A DNA stretch of 64,000 bases from Haplodiscus bocki (Eukaryota), in the NCBI GenBank assembly GCA_965655095.1, contig OZ296653.1:66712001-66776000 (forward strand). The letters run 5' to 3'. Below are positions 14,388-51,929 of this stretch, one piece after another (the stretch's first letter is position 1; each line of letters begins with the position of its first letter). The position numbers and the translations under genes were made by a program. Below the pieces are notes generated by a model, which was not told the DNA's origin, did no database searches, and saw only the letters and a list, made by a program, of their open reading frames with translations.

Positions 14388-14432
14388 AGCTTCTTTGCTA
14401 TTTTTATGGATTTTGCACATAAATACGTAAAT

Positions 14433-26879: not shown

Positions 26880-28600
26880 ATCGATTTTTAATCAAAATTG
26901 GGGCCCTCTGGATGCCATATTCTTGTTCTAAATCCCGTCAAATAGGGTATTTTGATCCCATAAATTGAGAGCTTCAAGTTTGATCAATACGATTTCTGTT
27001 TCTATCTCATACGAAAACTGTCTCTGGAACGCAAAGTTTTCCGGTGTGTTCAGTGACGTTTTGTGTTTCTTAGATTAACGCAGTTTGTTCTTTTCTGCGA
27101 AGTTACAAAGAGAGTCTTTTGAAGTGCAGTTGTTGTCAAATTTTAACATTTTGACTTTTTTTAACAGTTTTGGTTTCTTATGGAGACCATGATCTAGTTA
27201 TGGATCTGGTCAAAAAAGCTATGCTACGACAGCTAGCTGATATATTCAGTATCAGTTAAAAGGACTTTTGTTTCCATCATCTGGAAACGTTTTTTGAGGA
27301 ACAGATTTTTGTCTGGCAAGTTTATTCACTTTTTTATCCTTCTGACTAATACGTTAAGACTTTTTAGATAAATTGAGTTTTCTCCATACATTCCGACATG
27401 CAACGGCTCTGCAACGAATCTGGCTCTGTGAATTTCCTTTTGTTGTAATAATTTTTTTATCCCGAGTCTGTCAAGCAGATTTTGGGGTCCTATGGAAGCC
27501 ACGTTCTCTTCGTGAATCCTAACAAGTGGGCTACCTAGTGGTCAGATTTTGAACGTTTCTACGCTAAAACAAAAGAACCCCTGTTTCTGTTGTCTGCAAA
27601 CATTGTTTTTGGAACGGAATTTTGTCCGACACCTTCAGACACAAAACATATCTTTTGGAAGACCAGATTTTTTTTGTCTGGTGAGAGAATGTTTTGCTTT
27701 TACACTGTGCCATATTGCAAAGATTGAGTCATTCCCACAGCTTTGAGGTCTTTTGTAAACCATGTTTTCGCAGTAGAGGACGAGACGGTAATCAGGCGCC
27801 AACAAAAGGAAAGCTCCAAGCTTGGCACATAAAGATTCTTGTATTTGTCCGACACAATCGTTGTGGAAAGGAGCATTGTCAGACAACATTATTTACTTTT
27901 TTTTCTTTTACTGAATAACATGTTTTGTCTTTTCAGTCAAAATCAATCTTTCCTTTATCGGAATCTGGCTCTTAGAAATTCCATTAGATGTCATTTTTGT
28001 GATATCTCGATTTGTTTTGAAGTTTTTGGGGTTCTCTGGAGGCCATGTTTTCCTGTGTAGTCCAATTTCTCCTATTCAAGCTACGTTCTCCTTGTATAAA
28101 CACAACAAAAAATATCTGAGGAGAAAAAAATGGTCGTCAAAAAGGACGTTATTTAAATGATGTTATTGTCCAAAAGCAAGGATTGCAGTTGATGGAAACA
28201 GAAAGCCCTACTTTTCAAGTTTGAGGCTCTCAGCTTCTGGGCGCCTCACAGACCATTTGACAGGGTCCACAACAAATTTGTGGTCTCCATAGGACACCGA
28301 AAACTGCTAAACAGAATAAGAGTGTCAGCAAAATGGCACCCAATCAAAAATCAAACAGTCCGATTCCAGCAAAGCGTTAAAACGAAGAAGCTCAAAAGCC
28401 CTGAAAAGTAAAAACTTTAGTCAAAATGATACTAAAAATCAAAAAATAAATCGAACAAAGTGCTTTTCCACAAACAACTTTTTCTGATCACGAAAACAGG
28501 ACCCCTATATATGACACTGAAATTTCTCACCTTCCTGTCGCAGTATAGCCCACTTCAAAGGATCCACGAATTGAACGTGGCCTCCATAGAGCCCCAACAA
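26880..28600. repeat. ~260-310-bp degenerate tandem repeat: 5 forward units, then 2 inverted units
   Basis: Motif at ~26900, 27172, 27484, 27746 and 28027 on the plus strand; reverse-complemented at ~28282 and ~28575. Confidence 0.7.
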
Positions 28601-28649
28601 TTAGTGGTCATATTAGGATAACAAGTCAAGCTCACTTTTTCAGTGCCTA

Positions 28650-30975
28650 GTCCCATAAGGACCATCATTTACCTTCACAACACCCAAGAGCATAGTGAAA
28701 ATGGACAGGACAAAAGAAAAAAATTCACTTTTACCTTGCAACACATGAAACTCTGCCGAATTAACTTAATATATATCTCTACCCCTCATATACTTTCATG
28801 ACCTTAACTTGAAGAAAGTAAATAAAAAAATCATTCAATGATTTATGCTTTGTCACATTGCCCACAAGCGTTGGGGAGGTGAAGAAAAAATTGGTGGACC
28901 AGGGTCACATAAAAGTAGCTGGAGTTGTTTTCTGAATGTGGACCGAGCTGATATTAGGTACTTGAAAAATCACAGCTTTATGCCCCCGTTGATACAATTT
29001 TAACTTTCCAATTTCGCTTCCCATAGCTAGCGTTCCGGTAGGGTCATTGGCTAGCGTTTTTGGGATTTAATCTGAACCAACGTCTCCCAGTATTTGACAC
29101 AAGCGTTTGCTGTAGGAGTCAATCCATTAGAAATAAATTTTTTGAAGAGGTTTAATTTTGACCAGGAAAGCTCACTCTTAAAGATTGAAAACAATTGAAT
29201 TGAAGAACTGGCGATTGAGATTTGTCCAAGTTTTTCCAAAAAATTGCTATAAAATAATTGACAGTGACAGTTGAACTTTCTGCAGGCTATTTTTTGAAAT
29301 AATTGAAGTCAATTCGAAAACCAAACTCTGTGTTATCTGCAATAGACAGTTTATTAGAACAGCATAATGTAGACATTTAGAATCAAATAAAAACTTAGTA
29401 ACGGTGTAAAAATAGTCAAGTCGAAAAAAAGTTATCTCTTAGTAAAGGAGAAAGTCGCTATTAACCACAAACACAAAGATGTGTGATTTGTTGTGCATTA
29501 ACTGCAACTTTAAAAATGCCGGCGAAAAAGTAAAAAGTAAAATACAAAATCTGAAAATCTCATAACGACCACCCTGATGAAGAATCTCATCCTCAATTTT
29601 TTGAGAGTATCAGTATGAAAGCCATATGATGTTTGTGATTTAAGTTTGAATGATTCAAGTTTCGGAACTATTTGGAATCTACAGAAATTTTAAAAGGAAC
29701 AGGTAAAAAAGCAAAAGGTGACCTCTATGAATTTTTTTCCACTTTTTATCACACAAAGTTTAATAATGATGAACCAGATGACGCAGAAACTTTCTAATCA
29801 TCCTTGCTCTGTGATATTTGTGAAGCCGATACAGTCCGCTGGGTTCATATATAAAAAGTGTTTTTTATCGTTATTTTTTTCAAGAAAGGTGAAGTGCGTA
29901 ACTGAGACAAAAGACCAACGAATGTTTCGTTGAAATAATCTGATCTTTCCTGTAGGTTATGTTGAAACAACGAACTACCTTCATGGTCGGGCAATGAATT
30001 AGTTTCGAAGTTGGTATAACCTTCCGGTGACTCCATTGTTTTTATGAATACCGCTTCTTGGAAGCTATTCATCTTTTGAACGGAATTTATTTCTGTCAGC
30101 AAACAAGTATGTAAGGAAGATATTGAAAGAATTGGACAAACCATGTTTACATTAGAAACAAGTAATATCGTCACCGAAGATGCATTTAACTTTAGTGACA
30201 TTTCAGATGGATATATTAAAGAAAGTAAAAACGAAAAATCATTCAAAGCCTTATGCTTTCCCACAATGCCCAAACGTTGCAGAGGTGAAGAAAATAGTGG
30301 ACCAGGCTCAAATTAAACTAACGGGATTTGTTTTCTAAATGTGGCCACAGCTGATATTAGATAATTGAAAACTCACAGCCTCAAGCTCCTGTTTTTACAT
30401 TTATAACTTTTCCAATTTAGCCTGCCATAGTGTCATTGGCCGACGTTTTTGGAATTCAGCCTTAACCAACGTCTCCCAGTGTTTGGCGCAACCGTTTGCT
30501 GTACAAGAAGCTCTAGGTCCATCTGTTAGAAATGAAATTCATCTTTTGAACGGAGTTTTTTTCTATCAATAAAAAAATTTGTAAGGATAAAATTGAAGGA
30601 ATGGGACAAACGTTGTTTAGATCAGAAACAAGTTATTTGGTCGCCAAAGATGCATTTAACTTTAGTGACATTTCAGATGACAGTGTTAAAGAAAGTAAAA
30701 TAAAAAAATCTTTCAATGGTTTATGCTTTCTCACAATGCCCACAAGCGTTGGGGAGGTAAACAAAAAAAGTGGACCGGGATAATATAAATGTAGCGGGAC
30801 CTGTTTTTATAGTGGCCACAACTGATATTAGATAACTGATAAATCACAGCTTTATGCCCTTGTTTATACATTTTCAACTGTCCAATTTGGCTCCGATAGC
30901 GTTGTGGTAGAGTCATTGGCAAGAGATAAGGATGCAGCCGGCGTTTTTGGGGTTCACTCTAAACTAATCTCTCCC
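28650..30975 (+). repeat. Plus-orientation copies of the pPolB-derived monomers
   Basis: The core marker GGACCAGG recurs at ~28896, ~30300 and ~30771 and is the reverse complement of the array marker. Confidence 0.85.
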
Positions 30976-32480
30976 AATCTTTGGCACGAACCTTTAGTAT
31001 GGGAGGAACTCTGAAAGAAACGAGTTGAAACCAGGGGATTTTTATGACAAGTTTTTCAAAGCAGAAAACGTTTCAGTTGTTGCTTTCTTAGTGGCTCTAT
31101 ATGATGACAGTCTGTGCATAGGAAACGTTGATCATGTGATGGACAATTTATTGCTATGGAATTGATTTTCCAACGCAATCCCATTTTACTGGAAGAAAAA
31201 GAAGACACGCACTTTTTACACGTAGTCTAGAGCTAAGGGAGTTAAAAAAATCTTTTTCCGCTAATTTTTCACAAATTCTGCGATTTTGGTTGTCAAATGA
31301 CGTCTTGAAAATTAGTTAACCGAACTTTTGGGAAAAAATAAAACGAAACGAGTTGATTTTTTGGCAAAAACGTGCGGAAGAATATATCTGTTGCAAGAGT
31401 GGGACTGCAATTTTGAGATTCTTACAATGTTTTTCGATGAAGATTTAAATAATTTGGTGGAAATTTTACCCAACGATGGTAAGGAATTTGCAGCTCTGGA
31501 AAAAAAAGAATGATTGGTGAAACATCTGAGAAAAACTAGCGTACATTTATGAGTTTTTTTTTCTATTGAACAATATGCTTATCTTTTGAACCTAAAAGAA
31601 AGATTACTTTTGTGCTTCAAACGTATTTACTCGTTAAAAAAATCGAGTCTAATTCCCAACAAGGAAACTCTACAATTGATAAGGAACTAACTACACTACA
31701 TATTGAAAAGGGTGTTTTAGCACCAACAGATATACTAACCAAATTTACAGATATTAAATCTTCGTATGACTCGAAACAACTTTAATGTTATAGGTGGCGA
31801 AGGACTACTTGGGAGCTGGTTTGCAGGTTACAGGACAAAAATCTGATAGTAAGTTGGATGACACACATAGGTTAGCATTGGAAAATGATTTGAGAAGAGG
31901 AATACTTTCTATGGAGGACAGTCGTAGGGTGGTAGGGTGACAAAAAGCAAAATGAAAAAATTTCTGTGTATGGATGCCAATAACAGGTATGGATGACCTT
32001 TGTCACAGAAAATACCAAAGTGAGTGTTTGACCAGATGAAAACTTGTAAGGATTATGATGAAATATGGGGATATGTGCTTTCAAAAACGTTTACCAATAT
32101 GCAAAATCTAAGTTTTGCAAAGTTTTTTTTAGCATGTGATTTAGAAGATCCACTCTCAGTAAAAAAAGAAGAAACACTTCCTTTTTTGTCCCGGGAAAAA
32201 AATTCAAGTCTTGATCAATGTAATGAATTCAAGTTGAAAGCGAACTCAGAAAAAAATAAAATCACCGAAGAAGTTTTTTTGCCTTCAAACATTTTTAAAA
32301 CTCTCCTTAGGGTATAGAGAGATAAAGTTTGTATCTCGCAATGTTTGAACGCTGGGAATACACATAACGTTGTAAAGTTTGACCAACCACTTTGGTTAGC
32401 AAAATTTTAAATTTTTCTCAAGGACGAACAGCTGAAGCACAGAATAGTATTTGACAATAAGTAAATGAATGCCGCTTTCT
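29800..32480 (+). pseudogene. polB: Polinton element 2 pPolB (DANNLYG-type), sense copy, truncated after motif B
   Basis: ExoII-like VVAFLVALYDDSL (~31070), motif A MDANNRYG*PLSQKIP (~31970-32020), FFLACDLEDP, VVKFDQPLWL, motif B NAAFFGETMDI (~32468). The start coordinate is approximate. Confidence 0.75.
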
Positions 32481-32499
32481 TTGGTGAAACAATGGATAT

Positions 32500-35400
32500 T
32501 ACACAAATTTAAACAAAAAAAAACTTTTACACGGACAACTTATAAACAGTGACAAAAAATGTATAAACAGGGGCAAAAAGCAGTTATTCTTCACATATCT
32601 AATATCAGCTGCGGCCAAAATTAGAAAACAACTCCCGTTGTTTTTATGTGAGCCTGGTCCACTAATTTTTTTATTCACTTCCCCAACGCTTGTGGGCTTT
32701 GAGACAAAGCATAAACCATTGAATGATTTTTCTTTTTTACTTTCTTTAAAATATTCATCCGAAACGTCATTGAAGTTAGATGCATCTTTTGTGACGATGT
32801 AACTTTTTTCTAATCCAAACATGGTTTGTCAAATTCCTTCAATATTATATTTACAAATTTGCTTGCTGATAGAAACAAAATCCGTTCGAAAGGTGAATCG
32901 CTTCGAAGAAGCGATATTGATAACAACAATGGGGCCATCGAAAAGTTTTACCAAAACAAAAACTAACCCATAGCCCGACTATGAAGGTAGTTTTGTTGTT
33001 TCTACTTAACCTACAGGGAATATCAGATTAATTCAACGACACTTTCGTTGGTTTTTTGTCCCTGTTATGCACTTCACATTTCTTAAAAAAATGATGAAAA
33101 ACACTTTTTATATATGAACCCGGCGGGTTGTATTGGCTTCACAAATATCACAGAAAATTAATCAACAAAAAATTTCTGCCTCATTTGGTTCATCAATATC
33201 ATGCCTTGTGTAATTAACAATGGAAAAAAATTCATAGAATTCACATTTTGCTTTTTCACCTGTTCCAAATAAATTTTTACTTATTTTCAATTAGTTTTGA
33301 AACTTGGTTCATTCAAATTTAAACGACAAACATCACATTGTTTTCCTACTGATACACTCTAAAAATTGGGAATGAGCTTCTTCATCATTGTGGTCGGTAA
33401 CAGGTTTTCAGATTTTGTATTTTACTTTTTCACCAGCATTATTGAAATTGCAGTTCCTTCTCTTTTATGGACTCAAAGCACACATCATACATCTTTGTGT
33501 TTGCGGTTAATAGCTACTTTTTCCTTTACTAGGGGAAACTTTTATCGACATGACTCACTTCATACCGTAACTAAAGTTACATTTGATTCTAAATGTCTAC
33601 TTCATGCTGTTCCAATAACCTGTTTATTGCAGAAATCACAAACATTGATTTTTGATTTGGCTTCAATTACTTCAAAAATTTAGCCAGCAGAAATTTCAAC
33701 TGTTGCTCCCAATTACAATAACACAATTTTTTCGAAAATTTTGGAAAAACCTCATTCCGCAGTTTTTCACTTCGTTTTATCGAGCCCTAAGAGTGAGCAT
33801 TCCCGGTAAAAATTACACTTCTCCAAAAAAATTTTTCTAACGGGTTGAATCAGAGCTACTCCTATAGCAAACGCTTGTGTCAAAGACTGGGAAACGTTGG
33901 TTTAGATTGAATCCCAAAAACCCTGGCTAATGACACTACCGAAACGCTAGCAATGGGAGGCGAAATTGGAAAGTTAAAATTGTATAAACAGCGGCAAAAA
34001 GCCGTAATTCTTCAACATTCTAATATCAGCTGTGGCCACAATTAGAAAACCATTCCCGCTATTTTAATGTGAGCCGGGTCCACTAATTTTTTTCTTCACC
34101 TCCCCAACGCTTGTGGGCTTTGTGACAAAGCATAAACCACTGAATGATTATATATTTTTACTTTCTTTAAAAAATTCATCCGAAATGTCATTAAAGTTAG
34201 ATGCATCTTCGGCGACGATATAACTTATTTCTAATCTAAACATGGTTCGTCAAATTCCTTCAACACTATCTTTACAAATTTGCTTGCGGATAGAAACAAA
34301 ATCCGTTCGAAATGTGAATCGCTTTGAAGGAGCGATATTGATAACAACAATGGGGCCTCCGAACAGATATACCAAAACAGAAACTATTTCATTGCCCGAC
34401 CATGAAGGTAGTTCGTTGTTTCAACATAACCTACAGGAAAGATCTGATTAATTCAACGACACATTCGTTGGTCTTTTGTCTCAGTTATGCACTTCACCTT
34501 TCTTGAAAAAAGAACGATAAAAAAGACTTTTGTTGTAGGAACTCAACGGGTAGTATTGGCTTCACAAATATCACAGACCATTCATCAACAAAAAATCTCT
34601 GCATCATCTGGTTCATCATTGTTATGCTTTGTGTAGATAACAGTGGAAAAAAACTCATAGAACTCACATTTTGCTTTTTCACCTGTTCCAATTAAAATTT
34701 TAGTTAAATACAATTAGTTTCGAAACTTGGTCCATTCAAACTTAAATCACAAACATCACATTGTTTTCATAATCTTAAACTCTAAAGATTGAGGATGAGC
34801 TTATTCATGAATCTGGTCGTTATCAGATTTTCAGATTTTGTATAATTTTTTCTCACCAGCATTATTAAAAGTGCAGTTCCTTCTCTTTTATGCACTCAAT
34901 GCACACATCACACATCTTTTTGTTTGTGGTTAATAGCTCCATTTTCCTTTATTAGGGGAAACTTTTTTCGACATGACTCATTTTATACCGTAACTAAGTG
35001 TATTTTTGATTCTAAATGTCTACTTCATGCTGTTCCAATAAATTGTCTATTGCAGAAATCACAAACATTGATTTTTGATTTGGCTTCAATTACTTCAAAA
35101 ATTTAGCCAACAGAAATTTCAACTGTTGCTCCCAATTACAATAACACAATTTTTTCGAAAATTTTGGAAAAACCTCATTCCGCAGTTTTTCACTTCGTTT
35201 TATCGAGCCCTAAGAGTGAGCATTCCCGGTAAAAATTACACTTCTCCAAAAAAAATTTTTCTAACGGGTTGAATCAGAGCTACTCCTATAGCAAACGCTT
35301 GTGTCAAAGACTGGGAAACGTTGGTTTAGATTGAATCCCAAAAACCCTGGCTAATGACACTACCGAAACGCTAGCAATGGGAGGCGAAATTGGAAAGTTA

Positions 35401-38400
35401 AAATTGTATAAACAGCGGCAAAAAGCCGTAATTCTTCAACATTCTAATATCAGCTGTGGCCACAATTAGAAAACCATTCCCGCTATTTTAATGTGAGCCG
35501 GGTCCACTAATTTTTTTCTTCACCTCCCCAACGCTTGTGGGCTTTGTGACAAAGCATAAACCACTGAATGATTATATATTTTTACTTTCTTTAAAAAATT
35601 CATCCGAAATGTCATTAAAGTTAGATGCATCTTCGGCGACGATATAACTTATTTCTAATCTAAACATGGTTCGTCAAATTCCTTCAACACTATCTTTACA
35701 AATTTGCTTGCGGATAGAAACAAAATCCGTTCGAAATGTGAATCGCTTTGAAGGAGCGATATTGATAACAACAATGGGGCCTCCGAACAGATATACCAAA
35801 ACAGAAACTATTTCATTGCCCGACCATGAAGGTAGTTCGTTGTTTCAACATAACCTACAGGAAAGATCTGATTAATTCAACGACACATTCGTTGGTCTTT
35901 TGTCTCAGTTATGCACTTCACCTTTCTTGAAAAAAGAACGATAAAAAAGACTTTTGTTGTAGGAACTCAACGGGTAGTATTGGCTTCACAAATATCACAG
36001 ACCATTCATCAACAAAAAATCTCTGCATCATCTGGTTCATCATTATTATGCTTTGTGTAGATAACAGTGGAAAAAAACTCATAGAACTCACATTTTGCTT
36101 TTTCACCTGTTCCAATTAAAATTTTAGTTAAATACAATTAGTTTCGAAACTTGGTCCATTCAAACTTAAATCACAAACATCACATTGTTTTCATAATCTT
36201 AAACTCTAAAGATTGAGGATGAGCTTATTCATGAATCTGGTCGTTATCAGATTTTCAGATTTTGTATAATTTTTTCTCACCAGCATTATTAAAAGTGCAG
36301 TTCCTTCTCTTTTATGCACTCAATGCACACATCACACATCTTTTTGTTTGTGGTTAATAGCTCCATTTTCCTTTATTAGGGGAAACTTTTTTCGACATGA
36401 CTCATTTTATACCGTAACTAAGTGTATTTTTGATTCTAAATGTCTACTTCATGCTGTTCCAATAAATTGTCTATTGCAGAAATCACAAAATTTGATTTTT
36501 GATTTCGCTTCAATTAATTTAAAGAATAGCCAGCAGAAAGTTCAACTGCTGCTGTCAATTACTTTATAGCAATTTCTTCGAAAAATTTGGAAAAACCTCT
36601 TTCCCCAGCTCTTTATGTGTTTTTTTTGAGCTTTAAGGTTGAGCGTTCCCGGTAAAAATTAAACTTCTCCAAAATTTTCATTTATAGCGGATTGAATCAG
36701 AGCTCCTCCTATAGCAAACGCTTGTGTCAAAGACTGGGAGACGTTGGTTTGGATTGAATCCCAAAAACGCTGGCCAAAGACACTACCGAAACGCTAGCTA
36801 TGGGAAGCGAAATTGGAAAGTTAAAATTGTATCAACGGCGGCATAAAGCTGTGATTTTTCAAGTACCTAATATCAGCTGGGGCCACTTTCAGAAAACAAC
36901 TCCAGCTACTTTTATGTGAGCCTGGTCCACTACTTTTTTTCCTCACCTCCACAATGCTTGTGGACATTGTGACAAAGCATAAATCCTCGAATGATTTTTT
37001 TATTTACTTTCTTCAACTTAATTTCATCAGAGTACATGAGGGGTAGGGATATATATTTAGTTAATTCAGCAGAGTTTTTTGGGTTGCAAGGTAAAAGTGA
37101 ATATTTTTCTATTGTCCTATCCTTTTTCACTATGCTCAAGGGTGTTGTGAGGGTAAATGAAAAAAAGACTTAGGGTTGTTAGAGACTATAAATTTTTCAA
37201 TTTTCTGATGTTAGGCTGTTCATAGAAGTTTTTCATTTCTTTATTTTTGTTTAATATCCATTGTTTTCCCGGAGGAAGCAGCATTCTTTTATGTATCGTC
37301 AAAGACTTGTCTGTGCTTCAGCTGTTCATCCTTTATTAGAGTTTGAAACCTTTGCTAACCAAAGTGATTGGTCAAACTTTACAACGTTATGTGTATTCCC
37401 AGCATTCAATCATTGCGAGCTGCAAAAATTATCTCTCTATAACCTAAGGAGAGTTTTTTCATTGTTTGAAGGCAAAATAACTTCTTCGGTGATTTTATAC
37501 TTTTCTGAGTTCGCTTTCAACTTGAATTAATCTAAAGAACAGCCAGCGGAAAGTTCAACTGCTGCTGTCAATTACTTTCTAGCAATTTTTCGAAAATTTT
37601 GGAAAAACCTCATTCCCCAGCTCTTCACTTCACTTCTTTGAGCATTAAGATTGAGCGTTCCCGGTATAAATTAAACCTCTCCAAAACTTTCATTTATAAT
37701 GGATTGAATCATAGCTCCTCCTATAGCGAACGCGTGTGTCAAAGACTGGGAGACGTTGGTTTGGATTGAATCCGAAAAACGCTGGCCAAAGACACTACCG
37801 AAACGCTAGCTATGGGAGGCGAAATTGGAAAGTTAAAAATGTTTAAACAGGGGCAAATGCTGTAATTCTTCAATTATCTAATATCAGCTGCAGCCATATT
37901 TAGAAAACAACTCCCGTTGTTTTTATGCGAACCTGGTCCACTAATTTTTTTATTCACCTCCGCAACGCTTGTGGGCTTTGAGACAAAGCATAAACCATTG
38001 AATGATTTTTCATTTTTACCTTCTTTAAAATATTCATCCGAAACGTTTTTTAAAGTTAGATGCATCTTTTGTGACGATGCAACTTATTTCTAATCCAAAC
38101 ATGGTTTGTCAAATTCCTTCAACATTATCTTTACAAATTTGCTTGCTGATAGAAACAAAATCCGTTCAAAAGGTGAATCGCTTTGAAGGAGCGATATTGA
38201 TGACAACAATGGGGCCAACGAAAGGTTATCCCAAAACAGAAACTAATTCATGTCCCGACCATGAAGGTATTTTTGTTGTTTCAACATAGTCTACAGGGAA
38301 TATCAGATTAATCTAACGAGCTTTCGTTGGTCTTTTGTCTCTGTTACGCACTTCACCTTTCCTGAAAAAATCATTTTTTATATATGAACACGGCGGGTTG

Positions 38401-41400
38401 TATTGGCTTCACAAATACCACAAACCATTCATCAACAAAAAATCTCTGCATCATCTGGTTCATCATTATTATGCTTTGTGTAGATAACAGTGGAAAAAAA
38501 CTCATAGAACTCACATTTTGCTTTTTCAACTGTTCCAAATAATTTTTTAGTTAATTTCAATCAGTTTTGAAACTTGGCTCAATCAAATTTAAACGACAAA
38601 CATCACATTGTTTTCCTACTGATACACTCTAAAAAATGGGGATGAACTTCTTCATGATTGTGGTCGGTATCAGGTTTTCAGATTTTGTATTTTACTTTTT
38701 CACCAGCATTTTTAAAATTGCAGTTCCTTCTCTTTTATGGACCGAAAGCACACATCACGCATCTTTGTGTTTGTGGTTAATAGCTACTTTTTCTTTTACT
38801 AGGGGAAATCTTTTTCGACATGACTCACTTTATACCGTAACCAAGAGTATATTTGATTCTAAAGGTCTACTTCATGCTGTTGCAATAAATTGTCTATTCC
38901 AGAAATCACAAAGTTTGATTTTTGATTTGGCTTCAATTACTTCAAAAAATTAGCCAGCGGAAAGTTCAACTGCTGCTGTCAATTACTTTATAGCAATTTT
39001 TTCGATAAACTCGGAAAAACCTCATTCCCCAGCTCTTTACTTCATTTTTTCGAGCTTTAAGAGTGATCGTTCCTGGTAAAAAATAAACCTCTCCAAAACT
39101 TTCATTTATAACGGATTGAATCAGAGCTCCTCCTATAGCAAACGCTTGTGTCAAAGACTGGGAAACGATGGTTTAGATTGAATCCCAAAAACCCTGGCCA
39201 ATGACACTACCAAAACGCTAGCTATGGGAGGCGAAGTTGGAAAGTTAAAAATGTATAAACAGAGGCAAAAAGGCGTAATTCTTCAATTATTTAATATCAG
39301 CTGTGGCCACAATTAGGAAACTATTCCCGCTATTTTAATGTGAGCCTGGTCCACTAAATTTTTTCTTCACCTCATAAACGCTTGTGGGCTTTGTGACAAA
39401 GCATAAACCATTGAATGATTATATATTTTTACTTTCTTTAAAAAATTCATCCGAAATGTCATTAAAGTTAGATGCATCTTCAGCGACGATATAACTTATT
39501 TCTAATCTAAACATGGTTCGTCAAAATCCTTCAACACTATCTTTACAAATTTGCTTGCGGATAGAAACAAAATCCGTTCGAAATGTGAATCGCTTCGAAG
39601 GAGCGATATTGATAACAACAATGGGGCCTCCGAACAGATATACCAAAACAGAAACTAATTCATTGCCCGACCATGAAGGTAGTTCGTTGTTTCAACATAA
39701 CCTACAGGAAAGATCAGATTATTTCAACGACACATTCGTTGGTCTTTTGTCTCAGTTATGCACTTCACCTTTCTTGAAAAAAGAACGATAAAAAAGACTT
39801 TTGATGTAGGAACTCAACGGGTTGTATTGGCTTCACAAATATCACAGACCATTCATCAACAAAAAATCTCTGCCTCATCTGGTTCATCATTATTATGCTT
39901 TGTGTAGATAACAGTGGAAAAAAACTCATAGAACACACATTTTGCTTTTTCACCCGTTCCAAAAAGTTTTTTAGTTAATTTCAATTAGTTTTGAAACTTG
40001 GTTCATTCAAAATTAAACGACAAACATCACATTGTTTTCCTACTGATACACTCTAAAAATTGGGGATGAGCTTCTTCATCAAGGTGGTCGGTATCAGATT
40101 TTCAGATTTTGTATTTTACTATTTCACCAGCATTATTAAAATTGCAGTTCCTTCTCTTTTATGGACTCAATGCACACATCACACATCTTTTTGTTTGTGG
40201 TTAATAGCTACTTTTTCCTTTACTAGGGGAAACTTTTTTCGACTGGACTCACTTTACACCGTAACTAAGTGTATATTTGATTCTAAATGTCTACTTCATG
40301 CTGTTCCAATAAATTGTCTATTGCAGAAATCACAAAATTCGATTTTTGATTTGGCTTCAATTAATTTAAAGAATAGCCAGCAGAAATTTCAACAGCTGCT
40401 GTCAATTACTTTATAGCAATTCTTTCGAAACACTTGGAAAAACCTCATTCTCCAGCTCTTCACTTCATTTTTTTGAGCTTTAAGATTGAGCGTTCCCTGT
40501 AAAAAATAAACCTCTCCAAAACTTTCATTTATAACGGATTGAATCATAGCTCCTCCTAAAGCAAACGCTTGTGTCAAAGACTGAGAGACGTTGGTTTGGA
40601 TCGAAATCCAAAAACGCTGGCCAAAGACACTACCGAAACGCTAGCTTTGGGAGGCGAAATTGGAATGTTAAAATCGTATAAACAGGGGCAAATGCTGTAA
40701 TTCTTCAATTATCTAATATCAGCTGCAGCCATATTTAGAAAACAACTCCCGTTGTTTTTATGTGAGCCTTGTTCACAATTGTTTTCTTCACCTCCCCAAC
40801 GCTTGTGGGCTTTGAGACAAAGCATAAACCATTGAATGATTTTTAATTTTTACTTTCTTTAAAATATTCATCCGAAACGTCATTAAAGTTAGATGCATCT
40901 TTTGTGACGATGTAACTTATTTCTAATCCAAACATGGTTTGTCAAATTCCTTCAACATTATCTTTACAAATTTGCTTGCTGATAGAAACAAAATCCGTTC
41001 AAAAGGTGAATCGCTTCGAAGGAGCGATATTGATAACAACAATGGGGCCAGCGAAAGGTTATCCCAAAACAGAAACTATTTCATGTCCCGATCATGAAGG
41101 TAGTTTTGTTGGTTTAACATAGTCTACAGGGAATATCAGATTAATCTAACGAACATTCATTGGTCTTTTGTCTCTGTTATTCGCTTCACCTTTCCTGAAA
41201 AAAACACTTTTTTATATGAACCTGGCGGGTTGTATTGGTTTCACAAATATCACAGACCATTCATCAACAAAAAATTTCTGCCTCATTTGGTTCATCAATA
41301 TCATGCTTTGTGTAATTAACAATGGAAAAAAATTCATAGAACTCACATTTTGCTTTTTCACATGTTCCAAATAATTTTTTTGGTAATTTCAATTAGTTTT

Positions 41401-44400
41401 GAAACTTGGTTCATTCAAACTTAAACGACAAACAACACATTGTTTTCCTACTGTTAAACTTTAAAAATTGGGGATGAGCTCCTTCATCAATGTGCTCGGT
41501 ATCAGATTTACTGATTTTGTATTTTACTTTTTCACCAGCATTATTAAAATTGCAGTTCCTTCTCTTTTATGGACTCAATGCACACATCACACATCTTTGT
41601 GTTTGTGGTTAATAGCTACTTTTTCCTTTACTAGGGGAAACTGTTTTCGACTGGACTCACTTTACACCGTAACTAAGTGTATATTTGATTCTAAATGTCT
41701 ACTTCATGCTGTTCCAATAAATTGTCTATTGCAGAAATCACAAAATTCGATCTTTGATTTGGCTTCAATTAATTTAAAGAATAGCCAGCAGAAATTTCAA
41801 CAGCTGCTGTCAATTACTTTATAGCAATTCTTTCGAAACACTTGGAAAAACCTCATTCTCCAGCTCTTCACTTCATTTTTTTGAGCTTTAAGATTGAGCG
41901 TTCCCGGTAAAAATTAAACCTCTCCAAAACTTTCATTTATAACGGATTGAATCAGAGCTCCTCCTATAGCAAACGCTTGTGTCAAAGACTGGGAGACGTT
42001 GGTTTGGATTGAATCCAAAAAACGCTGGCCAAAGACACTACCGAAACGCTAGCTATGGGAAGCGAAATTGGAAAGTTAAAATTGTATCAACGGGGGCATA
42101 AAGCTGTGATTTTTCAAGTACCTAACATCAGCTGGGGCCACATTCAGAAAACAACTCCAGCTGCTTTTATGTGAACCTGGTCCACTACTTTTTTTGTTCA
42201 CCTCCACACTGCTTGTGGACATTGTGACAAGGCATAAATCCTCGAATGATTTTTTTATTTACTTTCTTCAACTTAATTTCATCAAAGTACATGAGGGGTA
42301 GGGATATATATTTAATTAATTCAGCGGAGTTTTTTGGGTTGCAAGGTAAAAGTGAATATTTTTCTATTGTCCTATCCTTTTTCAATATACTCAAGGGTGT
42401 TGTGAGGGTAAATGAAAAAAAGACTAAGGGTTGTTAGAAACTATAATTTTTTCAATTTTCTGATGTTAGGTTGTTCATAGAAGTTTTTCATTTCTTTATT
42501 TTTGTTTAATATCCATTGTTTTTCCGAAGGAAACAGCATTCTTTTACGTATCGTCAAAGACTTGTCTGTGCTTCAGCTGTTCATCCTTTATTAGAGTTTG
42601 AAACCTTTGCTAACCAAAGTGATTGGTCAAACTTTACAATGTTATGTGTATTCCCAGCATATAAACATTGCGAGATGCAAAATTGATCTCTATATAACCT
42701 AAGGAGAGTTTTTTCATTGACTGAAGGCGAAATACCTTCTTCGGTGATTTTATACTTTTCTGAGTTCGCTTTCAACTTGAATTAATCTAAAGAACAGCCA
42801 GCAGAAAGTTCAACTGCTGCTGTCAATAACTTTATAGCAATTATTCGAAAAACTTGGAAAAACCTCATTCCCCAGCTCTTCACTTCACTTTTTTGAGCAT
42901 TAAGATTGAGCGTTCCCGGTATAAATTAAACCTCTCCAAAACTTTCATTTATAATGGATTGAATCATAGCTCCTCTTATAGCAAACTCTTGTGTCAAAGA
43001 CTGGGAGACGTTGGTTTGGATTGAATCCCAAAAACGCTGGCCAAGAACACTACCGAAACGCTAGCTATGGGAGGCGAAATTGGAAAATTAAAATTGTATC
43101 AACGGGGGCATAAAGCTGTGATTTTTCAAGTACCTAATATCAGCTGGGGCCACATTCAGAAAACAACTCCAGCTACTTTTATGTGAGCCTGGTCCACTAC
43201 TTTTTTTCTTCACCTCCACAATGCTTGTGGACATTGTGACAAGGCATAAATCCTCGAATGATTTTTTTTTTACTTTCTTCAACTTAATTTCATCAAAGTA
43301 CATGAGGGGTAGGGATATACATTTAGTTAATTCAGCAGAGTTTTTTGGGTTGCAAGGTAAAAGTGAATATTTTTCTATTGTCCTACCCTTTTTCACTATG
43401 CTCAAGGGTGTTGTGAGGGTAAATGAAAAAAAGACTTAGGGTTGTTAGAGACTATAATTTTTTCAATTTTCTGATGTTAGGCTGTTCATAGAAGTTTTTC
43501 ATTTCTTTATTTTTGTTTAATATCCATTGTTTTCCCGAAGGAAGCAGCATTCTTTTATGTATCGTCAAAGACTTGTCTGTGCTTCAGCTGTTCATCCTTT
43601 ATTAGAGTTTGAAACCTTTGCTAACCAAAGTGATTGGTCAAACTTTACAACGTTATGTGTATTCCCAGCATTCAATCATTGCGAGCTGCAAAAATTATCT
43701 CTCTATAACCTAAGGAGAGTTTTTTCATTGACTGAAGGCGAAATACCTTCTTCGGTGATTTTATACTTTTCTGAGTTCGCTTTCAACTTGAATTAATCTA
43801 AAGAACAGCCAGCAGAAAGTTCAACTGCTGCTGTCAATAACTTTATAGCAATTATTCGAAAAACTTGGAAAAACCTCATTCCCCAGCTCTTCACTTCACT
43901 TTTTTGAGCATTAAGATTGAGCGTTCCCGGTATAAATTAAACCTCTCCAAAACTTTCATTTATAATGGATTGAATCATAGCTCCTCTTATAGCAAACTCT
44001 TGTGTCAAAGACTGGGAGACGTTGGTTTGGATTGAATCCCAAAAACGCTGGCCAAGAACACTACCGAAACGCTAGCTATGGGAGGCGAAATTGGAAAATT
44101 AAAATTGTATCAACGGGGGCATAAAGCTGTGATTTTTCAAGTACCTAATATCAGCTGGGGCCACATTCAGAAAACAACTCCAGCTACTTTTATGTGAGCC
44201 TGGTCCACTACTTTTTTTCTTCACCTCCACAATGCTTGTGGACATTGTGACAAGGCATAAATCCTCGAATGATTTTTTTTTACTTTCTTCAACTTAATTT
44301 CATCAAAGTACATGAGGGGTAGGGATATACATTTAGTTAATTCAGCAGAGTTTTTTGGGTTGCAAGGTAAAAGTGAATATTTTTCTATTGTCCTACCCTT

Positions 44401-45185
44401 TTTCACTATGCTCAAGGGTGTTGTGAGGGTAAATGAAAAAAAGACTTAGGGTTGTTAGAGACTATAATTTTTTCAATTTTCTGATGTTAGGCTGTTCATA
44501 GAAGTTTTTCATTTCTTTATTTTTGTTTAATATCCATTGTTTTCCCGAAGGAAGCAGCATTCTTTTATGTATCGTCAAAGACTTGTCTGTGCTTCAGCTG
44601 TTCATCCTTTATTAGAGTTTGAAACCTTTGCTAACCAAAGTGATTGGTCAAACTTTACAACGTTATGTGTATTCCCAGCATTCAATCATTGCGAGCTGCA
44701 AAAATTATCTCTCTATAACCTAAGGAGAGTTTTTTCATTGTTTGAAGGCAAAATAACTTCTTCGGTGATTTTATACTTTTCTGAGTTCGCTTTCAACTTG
44801 AATTCAATATATTGATCAAGACTAAAAACGTTTTTCCTGGGACAAAAAAGGAAGTGTTTCCTCTTTATTTTTACTGAGAGTGGATCTTCTAAATCACATG
44901 CAAATAAAAAAACTTTGCAAGACTTACATTTTGCATTGGTGAACGTTTTTGAGAACACATATCCCTACATTTCATCCTAATCCATACAAGTTTCCATCTG
45001 ATCAAACACTCGCTTTGGTAATTTCTGTGACAAAGGTCATCCATACCTGTTATTGGCACCCATGTACAGAATTTTTTTCATATTGCTTTGTGTCACCCTA
45101 CGAATGTCTTTCATAGATAGTACTCCTGTTCTCAAATATATTTTCAATGCTAACCTATAAGCGTCATCCAACTTAATATCAAAAT
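32500..45185 (-). repeat. Higher-order tandem array of inverted pPolB fragments: L-L-L-S-L-L-L-S-S-S' (L ~1.42 kb, S ~1.01 kb)
   Basis: Marker GAGCCTGGTCCAC at 32650, 34071, 35495, 36918, 37929, 39342, 40764, 42173, 43185 and 44196. Spacings are 1421, 1424, 1423, 1011, 1413, 1422, 1409, 1012 and 1011. Confidence 0.95.
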
Positions 45186-45719
45186 TTCATCTCATTTTGA
45201 AAAAGTTTACTGAAAGGTCGCATTGGGAGTTTTGCTTATGAAAATGAAATATTTGATCATCTTATTTTTTTAAATCTCATTTTTTACAAAAATCTCTGGC
45301 GCAACATTTTCATAGTTGTTAGCCATAATATTGGAGCATATAGCTTCATTCTTATTGGTTATATGTTCAATAGTTCTAAAGTTAGAAGTTTTTGAATTAG
45401 CTCATTTATTCTTAATACAAAAATCACAATGGCATACTTTTTTTTGCTTATGTGTTCCTTAGAGCTTAAATGGATTGGTTGATTCTTAAGCTATTCGTTT
45501 ATGGCAGGTAGGCAAAAATAACCCCTAGCTGCTGTAAGGTTGCTAATGGTTTTTCTATGGTTCCATTCATTACAACGTTTACCTTTCAACCCACAAACAA
45601 AACAGGCGAAATACTCCATTTATATTTGGCGTTTTTTAAAAAACATTTTTCAGTTTTCTGTACGTCATCAGATTTTCTCTCAAATTCTGTCGCAGTTCTG
45701 TTTTAGTTTCGCATTCTTC

Positions 45720-45990
45720 TTTTTAATCAAGTTTCAGATGGAATTTCAGATTATCTTTCATAATCATGTTCAGATTCGTATTTCAGAAGCCTATTCATAC
45801 CTACTCTCGTGTTTCAGATTCATTCCTATATTTCCGCTTGATAATCATGTTTCATATTTTTTCCAGCTTCATGTTCTGATTCACATATCAGATTCAGACT
45901 CATATTCATATTCATCTTCATATTTCAGTTTCATCTTCATGTTTTAGATTCAGACTCTGTTTCAGGTTTCATCTTTCTTTTCATCTCACA
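45720..45990. repeat. Low-complexity TTCAK-rich hexamer tract (acidic, E/D/S-rich if read on the minus strand)
   Basis: Repeated ttcaga/ttcata/ttcatc words. Confidence 0.7.
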
Positions 45991-47235
45991 ATCCGTATCA
46001 CTGCTCAAATCACTGCACGACCAACCTGGTAATATAATCTTTTCACCTCTATAATCTCAGCTTTACTATCTGCGCCCGCATGCACTTCTGCCTTCTACTG
46101 CTTCGTTTCGGGTTTTAACTACTTCTGTATCCCAAGTTGAACGAGCATGGAAATTCTGTAAAATTTTATATGTTATCAAACACATTTTGAATGCTTTTGG
46201 ATGATTCATAATAATCTTTCCTGGCTTAAATTTTGTATGCTCATGTGATATCATCCGAGTTTTTGAAACAAATTTATAAAACTAGGCGGAGTGTTGTAGG
46301 TTGCTTCAAAACTTTGACAGAAGAAAAACAAGTAAAGTTTGACTGAAACCTACCCTACATTTATAACCGCGCATTACAACAGAAATGATACAGATTAAGC
46401 TTTCAACTACTAATCAGTCAGCAAATTATAGCTTTACGGTCAAAGCGTCAAAGAAACAACAAATATTGTTAACTTTGAAGTAGTAATGATTGAGTCAACA
46501 CAGGTGCGAGAAATTTAACGGTCTGTATCTGTTACCATGAAAACTTGAGAAAACGTTGGCTGCAGCAGTAAAAACCTTCAAAAAACGTGTTTGCCAATTC
46601 TCTGAATTGTTTATGTCTTTTAAATTAATTGCCTGCGCTCATTAATGCACAGTACAAAATTTTCATGTAAGTTGAATTCGACATGATAATGATTTCGCCG
46701 GGGTCACCATAGCTTTTGAGAATTCTTCCTACCATTATCAAAATGGGAACTTTGATTGTCGGTTGTTTTGTCACAGATAGATACCAATGAATATCGCTTT
46801 CAAAAATTGTCGGGCGTTCATGTTACCAAAAGCAATCGATGGCGAAAATCCATCTTTCACACCACGTAACGACAGTTTCTGATTACTTTACGGCGTAAAA
46901 ACTAAGGATGTTTTCGGTTTCAGCACTGTTATTAGATCTCCCAAAAAATGTTACCTGTTTTCAAGGTTAGAAAAGGCTGTTATTAGTCAACAAGACCTGA
47001 AGACAATTCCAAAAGTTTCCAGTCTCACTCGTCAATCATGAGGACTTGAGACCCTTAGTTGAAACATGAAAGTGAAAATTGTATAGACAACTTAGATATC
47101 GTGAACCTATAATCCACAGGACATCAAGTAACAGAATAATAAATGATTGAGAAACAAACATGGGTAAACATTTTGTGTGAAAAACGATTTTTCAACTCGA
47201 AGCGTTGTTTCAACTCATAACGAAACGTGCAACTC

Positions 47236-47262
47236 GGCCGCTTCGCGGCCTTGATTTACTAG
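47236..47262 (+). mobile_element. Helitron-type 3' end
   Basis: Perfect hairpin GGCCGC-TTC-GCGGCC (47236-47250), 8 nt, then CTAG followed by T. Confidence 0.65.
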
Positions 47263-47299
47263 TGTTCCTTTTCCGAAATCGCCTTTAGTTCAAAAACCT

Positions 47300-48480
47300 T
47301 CACTTGAAAATTCTCTTAAGACAGCGCATCTTGCAAAATTCTGATTGCAAGCTGCGGTTGACGAAAAAAATTCTTTTGGGAGGGTTGGGCTTATCTTGAG
47401 GAAACTACTACTGTAACTCTCAGATTGGATTGTTGGAAAAACTGGTTGTGACATTGGACAAAAAGTATAAATCTTTTTGTAAAATCTGGTCAACCTGCAA
47501 TCAGTATTTCATATTTCTGATTATTTTTTTGGTACCATTGCGTCACCGTAGTAGAATTTGGCAAAATTGTTGGACACTAGGAGATATTTCATCAACTTGA
47601 AGTGAGTGATAATTGTCTGAGCTGCAGTAGGGAAAAAACTCAGTCGAAAAGAAATTTGATGATCCATTGATTTTACAGCGATGATTTCGATTCAAACAAT
47701 TATTATCCTTAATGGTGTCAAAGCATCTATGTATCGTCAATGATATACCGATCAACCAATGATGTCTGGGTTGCAATCGTTCTCCGTCATGTTTAGCTCG
47801 TGATTGAAGCCATTTATAACTTTGCTAATAAACTGTTGGACAGAAGAAGCTGAGATTCGAAGCTTCGTACATTTCAATTTTCCGGAGTGTAATTGGAAAA
47901 CTAATGTTTCAAATCAGAAGATCAGGGAACTCTATTAGTTTGTCACATTATTATCTGGCAAAACGCACTGATGATTGTCTTCTTCCTTCTCGCGCGGAGG
48001 TCTTGGAGGCATTATGTCACAAACCCTCAGTGAGAGTATTGGACGATCAATAAGATTTAAATTTCAACTGGCCATCATCGATGCATTTTCCTCAATGTCA
48101 TCAGTGGCCCGTAAGCCACAAGCTTCACTAACATTCCTTGTTGTGTTCTTTGATGTAAAGTTCTCAGCCATTACTGAGTTAAAGGGTTTTTTATCCCGTT
48201 GAAAGCTTTAAGTAACTTGTTCTCAAAAGCGCTTAAAATCTTCTTGAGGCTGTTCCCAATAGCGTCTTTCATCACATGCGAAGGCACTTGAAAATCATTG
48301 CGAGTTTCATTTGCCTCAGCTAAACTAACAGAAACTGCTCCGTCAATAATTCCTCTGGTTTCATTCTTTTGGAAGCCAAACAACTGATATTGACTGGTTT
48401 CTTCGTCAGTTCACTTTAGGTCCTCATCTTTTTCGTTCTCAACATTTCTCTCGCTTTCAGACTTGTTTTTTTCCAATTTT
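47300..48480 (-). mobile_element. Decayed LINE 5' part (ORF1-like region plus APE endonuclease)
   Basis: NVRS (47862-47873), NPDIIG*S (47755-47772), NCLNRNHR and YYGDA occur in APE order, preceded by a charged, coiled-coil-like ORF. Confidence 0.45.
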
Positions 48481-49199
48481 TGAAGTCAATATAAAAAGCA
48501 AGAATTTTGTTGAACTATGATGCAAAAATTGTTAATCAAACAAAAATGCAATTGCGGGACAGACTTAAATAAAACTAGGAAATTCATGAGAAAATGAGAT
48601 CTGGAACTGTCTGTCGAAAATCGAGTAATTTACAAAAAAAAACAAATGATTTGGAAGAAGCCAGTCTCTCCTGATTGGTCAGCCAGAATTGGGGAAAAAT
48701 TCGAAAAAAGCACCTATCATGAAGCTAATTCTAACATGACAACAACTTACTAGAAGCATGGCGTCAGGTTTTTAGTAACATGACGTCAAGGATGATATGC
48801 CATTGTTTTGGTGGTCATAATATGTCAACAGAACAGCATCTGAATAAAGAATCATGAAGTATTCTCTAACCCAGATTGCATGGAGTAAAAACAATTGAAA
48901 GACTAATCATATTTCTTTATTAGACTGTTTCTGAGTGTATATCCGACTGAGCAACCTGGGTCCCGAAGAGACGTTTCTTTCTAGTGCCAAGATCTTCCTA
49001 TGTCAATTTTCCAAAAAACCGTAAGAGCTACTTAATAACTTTCACTTTCAGAATAAGAAAAATGGTTACTGATTGGTACTGATGGAATTTTTCAAATGAT
49101 TGAACTCGCAAAATTTTTAGAAATATATTTATGAAAAACTGAGTCTGATTGATCGAGTGATTATGTTTCGGATGTTTCAACGTTGACATCAACTGAGGG

Positions 49200-50300
49200 A
49201 GCTGCAATATGGTCCCAATACAAGTCAACCCTGCGAAAACTACCTGATAACATTTTGTACCTTGTCCTAAGACCCCAAGGGTCGGAAGAAGTTAGTAGGA
49301 AAAAATCAAAACTTTCAGTAAATTTTAAAAAATCCGATTTTGAATAAAACAAATAAGTTGAACCAAAAATGGAAAATGTTGTCAAGCTGATGCTAGAAAA
49401 GAGAGAGCTGCTCATAGAAGACAATCTCTTATAAAATTTGGTTAGCTGGCAGCTGGTGTTCCATGTTAGGCGTTACTGTATCAGTTCCATTGTTTTTGTG
49501 GAATAAAGTGTCAGGGTCTGAGAGCACTGTCTGAGGTGACCTATTAAATGTAGCATCTCCTTTGGGAGAACGATCATTCTTGGCACAGTCCTAGTTGTGA
49601 TCCTGGTTTTCCCCGCTAAAGTTCCGGGACGTTGCGGGAGCTGTTCTGCATTGAACCCGAACTAGTCAGCTCTCAACAAACTGGTATAGTTTCGAGAGTG
49701 CACCGAGCATCCGACTCAAAATTTTGCTGGTTTCCTGTGATAATTTTCCGGTTGCTTGGCCCTCAATTTCCTCGAAAACTGTGAAAATACTCTTCAAAAG
49801 TTCCGGAAGCAGTTGTGTCTCTCGACAAGTTGTTCCTAGGATATTCCTCTTGACTTTTAATCCTGAGTGAAGCCAACTTCCCCCTATTCCTCAGTGTTCC
49901 TTTAGCAGAAGAGATTTCAACAGTTTCCAAGATTGAATCAACTTATTAACTTCGTAATAGGAGATGAAAACTTACGAGGAAACTTTTAGTGACAGTTTGA
50001 TAACATCAGTGCAAAGATAATAAACTTTAGTTGTCCCAATTCCTCCTGTATATGGCTTTTCGTTGGCAAAATCGGGAAAAAAATTTTCACTCGTCAAGTC
50101 AAGGTACCAAAAAGAGAAAAGTACTGGTGAATACTATTTATGAAAGCTAAATTGCCGACTCAAGCGGGTAATGACTCAGTCTTTTCTCTCCCTGAAAAAG
50201 TTGCGTCTTTCTCCATCTTTTGGCAGCATGTGGACGAAACTAATCACCCGGAAATTGACATCAAAGTTTTGTTTCTTAGGCCGACATACTATTTACTTAT
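49200..50300 (-). mobile_element. Possible decayed gypsy gag/protease remnant
   Basis: Higher-GC coding-like stretch with only weak gag and zinc-knuckle resemblance. Confidence 0.25.
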
Positions 50301-51929
50301 AAATATCCACTAGCTGAAGTTTTCCCTCCTTTGGGAAAATGAAAATAAACTTTGAATTTCAAATCTGCAATTGAAAACGATAGTATATATTTCATGTCAA
50401 AAGTACAGTAAATCAGCTGAGAAACAGTTAAAAATGAGCCCAATTAAGATCGCTCCCAGTTCATTTACCATTTGTACTAGTCCGTTCCCTAACGGTCCCC
50501 TATTCTAATGGTAGCACTACTAGTACCGGTGAATAAGATTAAATGAGCTAGGCAGTGGACTGAAACTTGTATTCGTTCCGGCTTGAGTTTTCTTAGCTCA
50601 GTTATCTAGCAGAAGAGTGAAGGAGGGAATGGAATAGGGACGTCACCAGATTAGTAATGGCGGAACACGCACGGAACAAATAATCACGCCAAGAGTCTTT
50701 AACGTTTCTATGCAGCTGTACTTCTTCGCTTATCAATTGAAAGCTACTATTTTCTCCGTTTGCATCGTATTATCAAAACTGCAAGTCATTTAATTTAGAA
50801 CTTTAAAAGTGGATTTATGATTTAAAAAATAAATATAATATTGCATGTGTAGCACCTTTAAGTTGTCATAGAATTTTGAGTAGATACTTAATTGTTTCGT
50901 AACGGTTCCGTCCTAGACTGGATGAGTTTAAGAGAAAATGATAGGTATAAGTACGGATCCTTACAGATAAACAAAAACAAAAAATGCATGTATCGTTTGT
51001 TAGACAGTTTATCAATTTTTCTGGTATCTGGGGAATGTTGTTTTGCTTGAGATAACCTGCCCGTAGGTTTTGCAGATGTGCTGCGAGTGTCATCACACTT
51101 TAGAATTTTTTGAGAAATTCAAGAATAGAACTTTTTGTCCCATGTTTCTCAACTATTATATGGTTTATTTTCCTGGCATCTGAGGGAGTGACGCCTTTAA
51201 TCTTCCAAGTCCCCAGAGTTGGAGAAAGGTAATTTTACAACGTTGTCATGGTTCTCTTGTGTGATTATCAGAAACCATGTCCTTATTTAACAACAGTTTC
51301 AGTGTAACATGTATGTTATGATTTCGCGTTGTTTTTTGAAGATTTCTTGCTGATGATCTAGCTCGTCACATTTGGAACAGGGATACGTTTTACATTCTTC
51401 ATGCTCACGGTTAACTTTCGATGTTTTCCATTTTTTGTCACGTGCTCTTTTCTCTGCATTTCGGGGTGGTCGGCTCATGACAAAGCGATGTAGAGAATCA
51501 GCAGAGAAGTAATTAGAAAGGTTGAATTTTGTTTCATTTTGAACATCAGGAAATTGCTGCGAATCTCCTTTCAATATGTTTGAAATTTATTTATTTGTGA
51601 TACTGGCAATTCATTCCATATTATTGAATTTATCTAATTATTTGATGAAGTTTTTGACGCCGCCAATTATTGATATTTTGAAAGTTTTTCTGACAGCGTC
51701 AATAAGTAGACTTAATGTGCAACAAGAATATGTGATATATTATGACTTTCGATAACCGGCCTTAAAAATTAGTAAATTTTGCAATCAGTGGTTTCGTAGG
51801 AAACATTATAAAATAAAGAACAGCTTCTTTTTCTCCAAAAAATTAATCATATGCTACTGTGGTGGCACAAAAGAACTACATAATAACCCGAAACATGAAG
51901 CACAAGGTGTGAACTTCTGAAAATGTACT

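Follow-up and report, generated by a model that had tools for sequence, protein, structure and literature searches.

The repeated DNA at positions 32555-45187 of the window, the whole 64,000-nucleotide stretch of Haplodiscus bocki DNA that was analysed, consists mostly of the terminal inverted repeat (TIR) and the adjoining zinc-finger gene of a long-dead Polinton, a virus-like transposon, and about one seventh of it is polymerase gene. By profile-based boundaries, TIR sequence makes up 53% of the array, the zinc-finger gene 33% and the protein-primed family B polymerase (pPolB) 14%. The first-pass annotation had read this DNA as a higher-order satellite built from a polymerase gene; its Polinton derivation and the pPolB fragment in the S units hold, but the polymerase is the smallest of the three components. 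The tandem run is small, transposon-derived and well resolved, and is neither a polymerase-gene satellite nor a shown higher-order repeat. We consider it probable that this single-locus array of TIR, zinc-finger and short polymerase sequence was amplified by host unequal recombination between direct TIR copies left by earlier rearrangements.

Self-BLAST and probe tiling show that the tandem array is real: 12,633 bp are occupied by ten units, six of type L (~1.42 kb) and four of type S (~1.01 kb, the last one extended). The two monomer types and their order on the plus strand, LLLS-LLLSS-S', are thereby confirmed; the LLLS order of types recurs, with two occurrences only. The core common to L and S measures ~0.52 kb (previously given as 0.48), and the coding sense of the units is the minus strand. 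The full order is partial core, L1 c1 L2 c2 L3 c3 S1 c4 L4 c5 L5 c6 L6 c7 S2 c8 S3 c9 S4, extension. The repeats had been taken to start at 28650, but 28600-32529 lies outside the tandem run and is an inverted copy of array sequence, 79-87% identical to it by self-BLAST. The array and its left boundary comprise the following features:

32530..32554, no strand: breakpoint separating the inverted sister copy from the array (orientation switch in self-BLAST)
32555..37028, minus strand: partial core, L1-c1, L2-c2 and L3-c3 (probe tiling, identities)
37029..38038, minus strand: S1 and core c4 (monomer identities)
38039..42283, minus strand: L4-c5, L5-c6 and L6-c7 (L5 and c7 are mosaics by sliding nearest neighbours)
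42284..44804, minus strand: S2-c8, S3-c9 and S4 (TIR and pPolB profiles)
44805..45187, minus strand: unamplified pPolB extension to the motif A region (tblastn and pPolB profile)

Satellite DNA is defined by long, high-copy arrays or by a multi-locus family. The monomers are arranged head to tail, as in a satellite, but the ten units occupy 12.6 kb at one locus. When an S unit and an L unit were searched as DNA, no match among those listed exceeded 80% identity over more than 100 bp beyond the window; all of those above 80% lay within it, and the nearest copies elsewhere in the genome were at most ~73% identical over any alignment longer than 200 bp. The term satellite is not supported for this array. 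The contig that holds the window is 107 Mb long and belongs to a eukaryotic assembly of 1.5 Gb, in which at least 98 pPolB matches were found. No Pfam family scored above its cut-off in 14 translations of the array and sister arm, nor in the flanks and the ORFs of the window.

The shared core is identified, from sequence comparison, as the ~0.9 kb TIR of an extinct Polinton family. Genome-wide, 132 matches were obtained with the translated core and at least 150 with the first zinc finger, and core matches were often paired, plus then minus, 6.5-17 kb apart. Eight such convergent pairs, chosen by eye for analysis, were inverted repeats in all cases (345-927 bp detectable, 68-84% identical). They enclosed pPolB in all eight relatives, integrase in seven, double jelly-roll capsid in six and packaging ATPase in five, the reference proteins for these genes being named by Pfam (rve, DJR-like and Pox_A32); integrase, capsid and ATPase are absent from the array locus. 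The idea of a capsid-less family was rejected, as the references first used were too distant and family-matched ones found the six capsids. Polinton features, including TIRs of 100-1500 bp, were taken from PMC8097293 and 10.1101/2023.08.22.554363, and TIR length falls in this range in all eight relatives and at the one native end, at 28600. Younger relatives have the inner TIR in common with the family (E 1e-13 to 1e-24) and the same gene order. Six of them were fetched, two of which were without a clean TIR pair; AGT-type ends as well as target site duplications of 6 bp were present in four of the four checked. The end motif has decayed at 28600 and in the old relatives, and the array locus is without a right end at which a target duplication could be compared.

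A TIR profile made from 16 old natural ends covers every core of the array. It starts at 28597 in the sister arm, ~60 positions further into the TIR in cores that follow an S and ~215 positions in for cores that follow an L. The outer ~345 bp of the TIR form an imperfect palindrome in 11 of the 16 natural ends, as against one of 11 control stretches, and this palindrome is flanked by inverted copies of the end motif. The DNA fold of the copy in the window had a z score of -2.5, with none of 100 shuffles as good. A hairpin was considered as the driver of amplification and rejected: both palindrome arms are found in only two of the six unit types examined, namely, S of this array and the unit of the C1 array described below.

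The sequence that distinguishes L from S belongs to the element end opposite the polymerase, and L carries the zinc-finger gene of that end. Beyond the TIR, L2 matched 12 of 12 non-polymerase ends and none of 12 polymerase ends; five of the 12 non-polymerase ends had first been found with an L query and one end was reclassified, and the other seven match too. An L6 query gave short matches of 15-40 bp in six of the 12 polymerase ends. With a profile of seven non-polymerase ends, ~615 positions of every L were matched (E 1e-69 or better), whereas matches of the polymerase-end profile to L spanned no more than 130 positions (E 5e-7 or worse). The name zinc-finger gene is based on Cys-His spacing and is without a Pfam match. 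L and the core had been annotated as the N-terminal pPolB domain. A profile of that domain matched no L or core at E<1 and matched the neighbouring pPolB at E 1e-26. The annotation is nevertheless true in part: since the TIR of each end reaches into the first finger of its terminal gene, the first zinc finger of L is common to pPolB starts. A helix-turn-helix gene was seen downstream of the zinc-finger gene in three of eight elements by tblastn and at four single loci by eye.

Polymerase sequence in the S units was substantiated. Minus-strand pPolB homology at 45192-44578 was detected by tblastn with natural pPolBs of the same genome (E 3e-12 to 2e-17 for the four queries listed, ~30% identity), and a 12-sequence pPolB profile reached E 1.6e-20 at the array end, in agreement with the annotated extension of the last unit to motif A. 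The same profile approach, which had been proposed as a check of the monomers, matched S1-S3 (E 3e-6, 1.5e-7 and 1e-5) and the last unit. The window thus holds protein-primed family B polymerase as broken fragments at 45192-44443 and 31246-32529. Each S joins ~350 bp of pPolB to the TIR ~60 bp inside the TIR terminus; pPolB ends at this junction, at ~44440 and its copies. The outer arm of the TIR palindrome makes up the final ~135 bp of S, and the AELTKY motif, previously assigned to the pPolB motif B region, resides there. An identical stop and an identical frame break ahead of motif B recur in all four S copies, and on the sense strand no more than 115 codons run without a stop. These shared defects indicate that amplification followed the death of the gene.

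The inverted sister arm is older than the array and retains what appears to be the precursor order: native TIR, zinc-finger gene, two older partial TIR copies and pPolB. Its features are as follows:

28600..29508, plus strand: native TIR of the zinc-finger end, from the terminus up to and including the first zinc finger, with an approximate inner edge (TIR profile)
28600..28945, no strand: imperfect ~345 bp terminal palindrome between inverted copies of the terminal motif (profile matches on both strands)
29509..30204, plus strand: broken multi-zinc-finger accessory gene beyond the TIR, source of the L-specific sequence (non-polymerase-end profile, E 1e-62)
30205..31030, plus strand: two older partial TIR copies (30205-30537 and 30675-31030) with the tail of the zinc-finger gene between them (identity)
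31031..32529, plus strand: broken pPolB, exonuclease region to motif B (profile and self-BLAST)

The TIR profile matched 28597-29614 at E 7e-129, and the decayed terminal motif at 28600 resembles that of the relatives; position 28600 is accordingly a native element terminus. The TIR profile found no matching right-hand element end in 45187-64000. Between the two older partial TIR copies, and between either of them and the native TIR, identity is 75-78%, and the L-to-core junction of the array is also present within 30205-31030. The pPolB of this arm is 85% identical to 45187-44499, with profile matches at 31246-32497 (best E 4e-13). An S junction that had been placed at ~28830 does not exist, since pPolB signal is absent upstream of 28665 and the match to the TIR profile is unbroken from 28597 onward.

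In higher-order repeats, position-matched monomers are far more alike than neighbours. The order of types supports the annotated ~5.27 kb unit present twice, but the monomers themselves do not: none of the eight positional pairs of the two blocks were reciprocal best matches, and only two of 16 comparisons were best in one direction. The positional pairs were 89.8% (L1-L4), 93.9% (L2-L5), 88.5% (L3-L6), 89.0% (c1-c5), 84.1% (c2-c6), 94.8% (c3-c7), 89.3% (c4-c8) and 95.0% (S1-S2) identical; the closest monomers were c1 and c2 (99.8%), L2 and L3 (99.7%), c8 and c9 (100%) and S1 and S4 (99.0%). Two tracts are nearly identical over one period: 33625-35065 (1441 bp) is duplicated at an offset of 1423 with two substitutions and one indel, and 42693-43730 (1038 bp) at an offset of 1011 with no substitution and one indel. 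By these identities and tracts, the first block's third L and its S are much younger than the differences between the blocks. L5, c4, c6 and c7 are mosaics of other monomers, as seen from sliding nearest neighbours, and the range of monomer divergence, 0-19%, points to many events over time. The 5.27 kb unit was thus probably never duplicated as a unit, although a shorter mixed block may have been duplicated earlier, or exactly one unit may have been converted.

A true higher-order duplication, in which a single doubling of a mixed block, either LLLS or a shorter S-L-L, was followed by conversion and single-unit duplications that blurred the pairing, would account for the recurrence of the types at 5.27 kb, for 90% identity over 5.5 kb at that offset, for some windows there that differ by only 1.5-4%, and for the 94-95% identity of c3-c7, S1-S2 and L2-L5. 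However, besides the absence of reciprocal pairing and the low values of c2-c6 and L3-L6, neighbours at an offset of 1421 score higher (92%), differences at an offset of 5.28 kb vary from 3 to 32 per 200 bp, and the identity of c1-L2 with c2-L3 covers exactly one period, the outcome of a simple tandem duplication. We therefore regard such a duplication as improbable.

Divergence of up to 19% between monomers excludes assembly expansion of the array as a whole. It is a separate matter whether the two near-identical one-period duplicates are assembly expansions in an otherwise real array. They differ by 0-2 substitutions over 1.0-1.4 kb, and three differences between c1-L2 and c2-L3 show one letter each in the short-read contigs of four public runs. 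These runs, available as contigs and with no RNA data set among those listed, represent two samples of one study and may stem from the sample of the assembly itself; their contigs cover 28, 28, 28 and 23 of 30 bins of 33500-35100 and are too short to bridge a unit, and the listing showed no joint. Against expansion, the depth ratio was 1.27-1.30 in three runs, with 1.23 expected for two copies and 1.46 for one; this ratio, computed by hand, sets a contig that is in part three-copy against two-copy contigs, and depth does not equal copy number. The ratios lean to two real c1-L2 copies, and eight diverged units remain either way. Expansion of these duplicates is considered unlikely, and either outcome for c1-L2 weakens the higher-order reading.

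The preferred origin by host recombination would have proceeded in five steps. First, an old Polinton inserted, as its terminus at 28600 shows. Loss of the middle genes would then have left TIR copies flanking the zinc-finger gene head to tail; this arrangement is visible in the sister arm, and the route to it is conjectural. Next, an inverted duplication, evident from sequence identity, produced the two arms, now 12-19% apart; it was presumably local, as copies elsewhere in the genome reach at most ~73% identity. In the right arm, a crossover between the TIR copies flanking the zinc-finger gene may have made the L unit, as suggested by the chimeric cores that follow L, whose first ~200 columns are nearer to the older TIR copies and whose remainder is nearer to the native TIR. 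The S unit may have arisen from a duplication at TIR/pPolB microhomology; its defining core-to-pPolB junction lies at a microhomology of 4 bp exact and 7 of 8 between the two parents. Finally, the core common to L and S would have let unequal crossover or conversion shuffle units, as the identities suggest, so that a recent S was placed among the Ls and two one-period duplicates were added, giving the LLLS appearance. The order of the early rearrangements has more than one solution, and the pPolB-TIR junction could also stem from another, closely related element that inserted into the first. No function for the host is implied, and the array is most likely neutral.

The alternative that the array formed during replication of the element itself, by template switching or copy-back at palindromic ends, and was integrated as a defective concatemer would fit the ~345 bp palindrome between inverted terminal motifs, the location of the L junction near the palindrome centre and of the S junction in its outer arm, the inverted arms of the locus and the occurrence of the family in five arrays, but it is very improbable because the units share post-death breaks and differ by 0-19% where a concatemer would start identical and intact, L units hold only one palindrome arm, and ~500 bp of flanking sequence beyond the TIR is part of the C1 array. 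The shared breaks place amplification after the death of the element and so favour host recombination over viral replication; for the amplification steps they refute a replicative origin. A replication-type event could nevertheless lie behind the earliest rearrangement.

Four more arrays from the same TIR family were found, of up to ~85 kb:

C1 array, ~85 kb: 69 TIR hits, 56 of them full length, with a period of ~1.37 kb
C5 array, ~55 kb: TIR-pPolB-integrase units shrinking from ~6.5 to ~3.9 kb
C7 array: three units of 4472 bp
Second C5 array: two units of 7070 bp

The C1 unit consists of the TIR and the outside flank, and pairwise identity is 74-100%. As their junctions differ, the five arrays arose separately. 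Array counts at TIR and pPolB loci, made by eye among the matches listed for two locus sets that differ in age, were five of ~129 and one of ~144 (Fisher p 0.10), which does not demonstrate an excess. It can be put forward, tentatively and with considerable doubt, that a long TIR with a palindromic tip, belonging to one extinct Polinton family, has repeatedly seeded arrays of kilobase units in this genome: five independent cases with different junctions and 2 to ~62 units (85 kb, with local two-unit alternation) would grade naturally from the end of a dead virus to a young satellite, and a terminal palindrome with inverted end motifs would make the ends unstable. Self-BLAST also showed unrelated kilobase tandem duplications in the window.

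Polinton-related satellites and TIR-derived arrays have already been published, and the present array adds one more case. LmiSat34-299 of the migratory locust matches Polinton coding sequence (PMC4935994), and CgiSat52 of the Pacific oyster is a Polinton-like satellite with a 1,656 bp unit (PMC8268682). Both are, like this array, Polinton-homologous tandem repeats, the oyster unit being similar in size to L, but they are read-derived satellite families, whereas here ten units of two types occupy one locus with a traceable source and dated steps. TIRs are a common source of monomers, for example, Tetris TIR-220 in Drosophila virilis (PMC9659126; PMC12628747); non-allelic recombination, unequal crossover and microhomology joining have been named as array mechanisms (PMC9659126), and tandem dimers of transposable elements can expand to arrays (PMC5932611). 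The present array resembles these in its TIR source and mechanisms and differs from them in that its unit of 1.0-1.4 kb combines a TIR with part of a viral-type gene and formed long after the death of the element, not by double insertion. At C. elegans eri-6/7, Polinton TIRs were brought into direct orientation by inversions, for which ectopic recombination has been invoked (10.1101/2024.01.15.575659). Both loci hold Polinton remnants with TIRs turned into direct repeats; those of eri-6/7 serve trans-splicing of a host gene, whereas the present locus yielded no host gene and its repeats were amplified in tandem. Diverged monomer types in recurring order are shared with higher-order repeats of the alpha-satellite type, in which, unlike here, position-matched monomers are closest. 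A limited literature search, mostly at the level of titles and the beginnings of abstracts, found no report of a Polinton TIR-seeded array series or of a Polinton terminal palindrome.

A general caution follows from this locus: monomer types can recur in a periodic order without any higher-order unit having been duplicated. With five arrays traced to a single Polinton family, the proneness of certain element ends to tandem amplification would become testable, enrichment over background not being demonstrated by the present counts. The array itself offers a datable case of the passage from transposon remnant to tandem array: its sequence reveals which element it came from, where both junctions lie and in what order the duplications took place.

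The terminal inverted repeat (TIR, ~0.9 kb) of the extinct Polinton family, which forms the core of the window's array (32555-45187), starts with a segment of ~345 bp that has inverted copies of the end motif at both of its borders, as seen at old ends such as L098:5277-5618, a stretch of the same assembly (G000), and window 28600-28945. Because these inverted copies bound the segment, each old end carries a second, outward-facing end motif. Among the young relatives, which share the inner TIR and gene order with the old family, three of four have only shorter internal palindromes. The flank adjoining the native terminus (28429-28600) has a 174 bp inverted match (69%) to 19435-19607, 9 kb upstream. 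At the other side, directly upstream of the array's fragment of the Polinton protein-primed family B polymerase (pPolB), there is a weak match, in a zinc finger, between window 45309-45607 and the beginning of pPolB in the young family (E 2e-4 to 8e-4); a low-complexity stretch (45864-45952) lies beside it.

Further features in the window and elsewhere in the genome are as follows.

Window 52509-64000 plus L049:1-888: a separate decayed Polinton, ~12.4 kb.
G000:C1:106,187,500-106,273,100 (L105-L112, L044, L045): TIR array, ~85 kb.
G000:C5:37,908,000-37,963,000 (L114-L119, L080): TIR-pPolB-integrase array, ~55 kb.
G000:C7:45,884,000-45,894,300: three 4472 bp units containing the TIR of the window's array.
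C5:48,195,500-48,207,800: two 7070 bp units containing the same TIR.
G000:C4:88,366,100-88,385,400 (L071-L073): inverted duplication, 9 kb, 98.8% identical.

The decayed Polinton at 52509 has TIRs that are 80.5% identical across 925 bp and retains remnants of the HTH, ATPase, capsid, integrase and pPolB genes; no DNA match was found between its pPolB and that of the array. Other repeats in the window are recent tandem duplications at 1057-7450 (98.8-99.7% identity, offsets 1564-4828), of a repeat also present in L101, and an old inverted repeat at 12867-16286 (arms of ~1.5 kb, 73-75%) surrounding a scaffold gap of 200 N (14433-14632). In the C4 duplication, the half of a young Polinton-like element that carries the polymerase is present in two inverted copies, and repeat-rich DNA lies at the centre of the duplication.

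The C1 array comprises ~62 units of ~1.37 kb, each consisting of the TIR of the window's array and ~500 bp of flank. It started from an element end and grew outward, and in several stretches a local dimer pattern is seen, the closest unit lying two steps off. Along the ~55 kb C5 array, which holds far more polymerase sequence than the window's array, unit size falls from ~6.5 kb to ~3.9 kb, and seven late units share 96.5-100% identity. As a candidate satellite, the C1 array is to be preferred to the array in the window.
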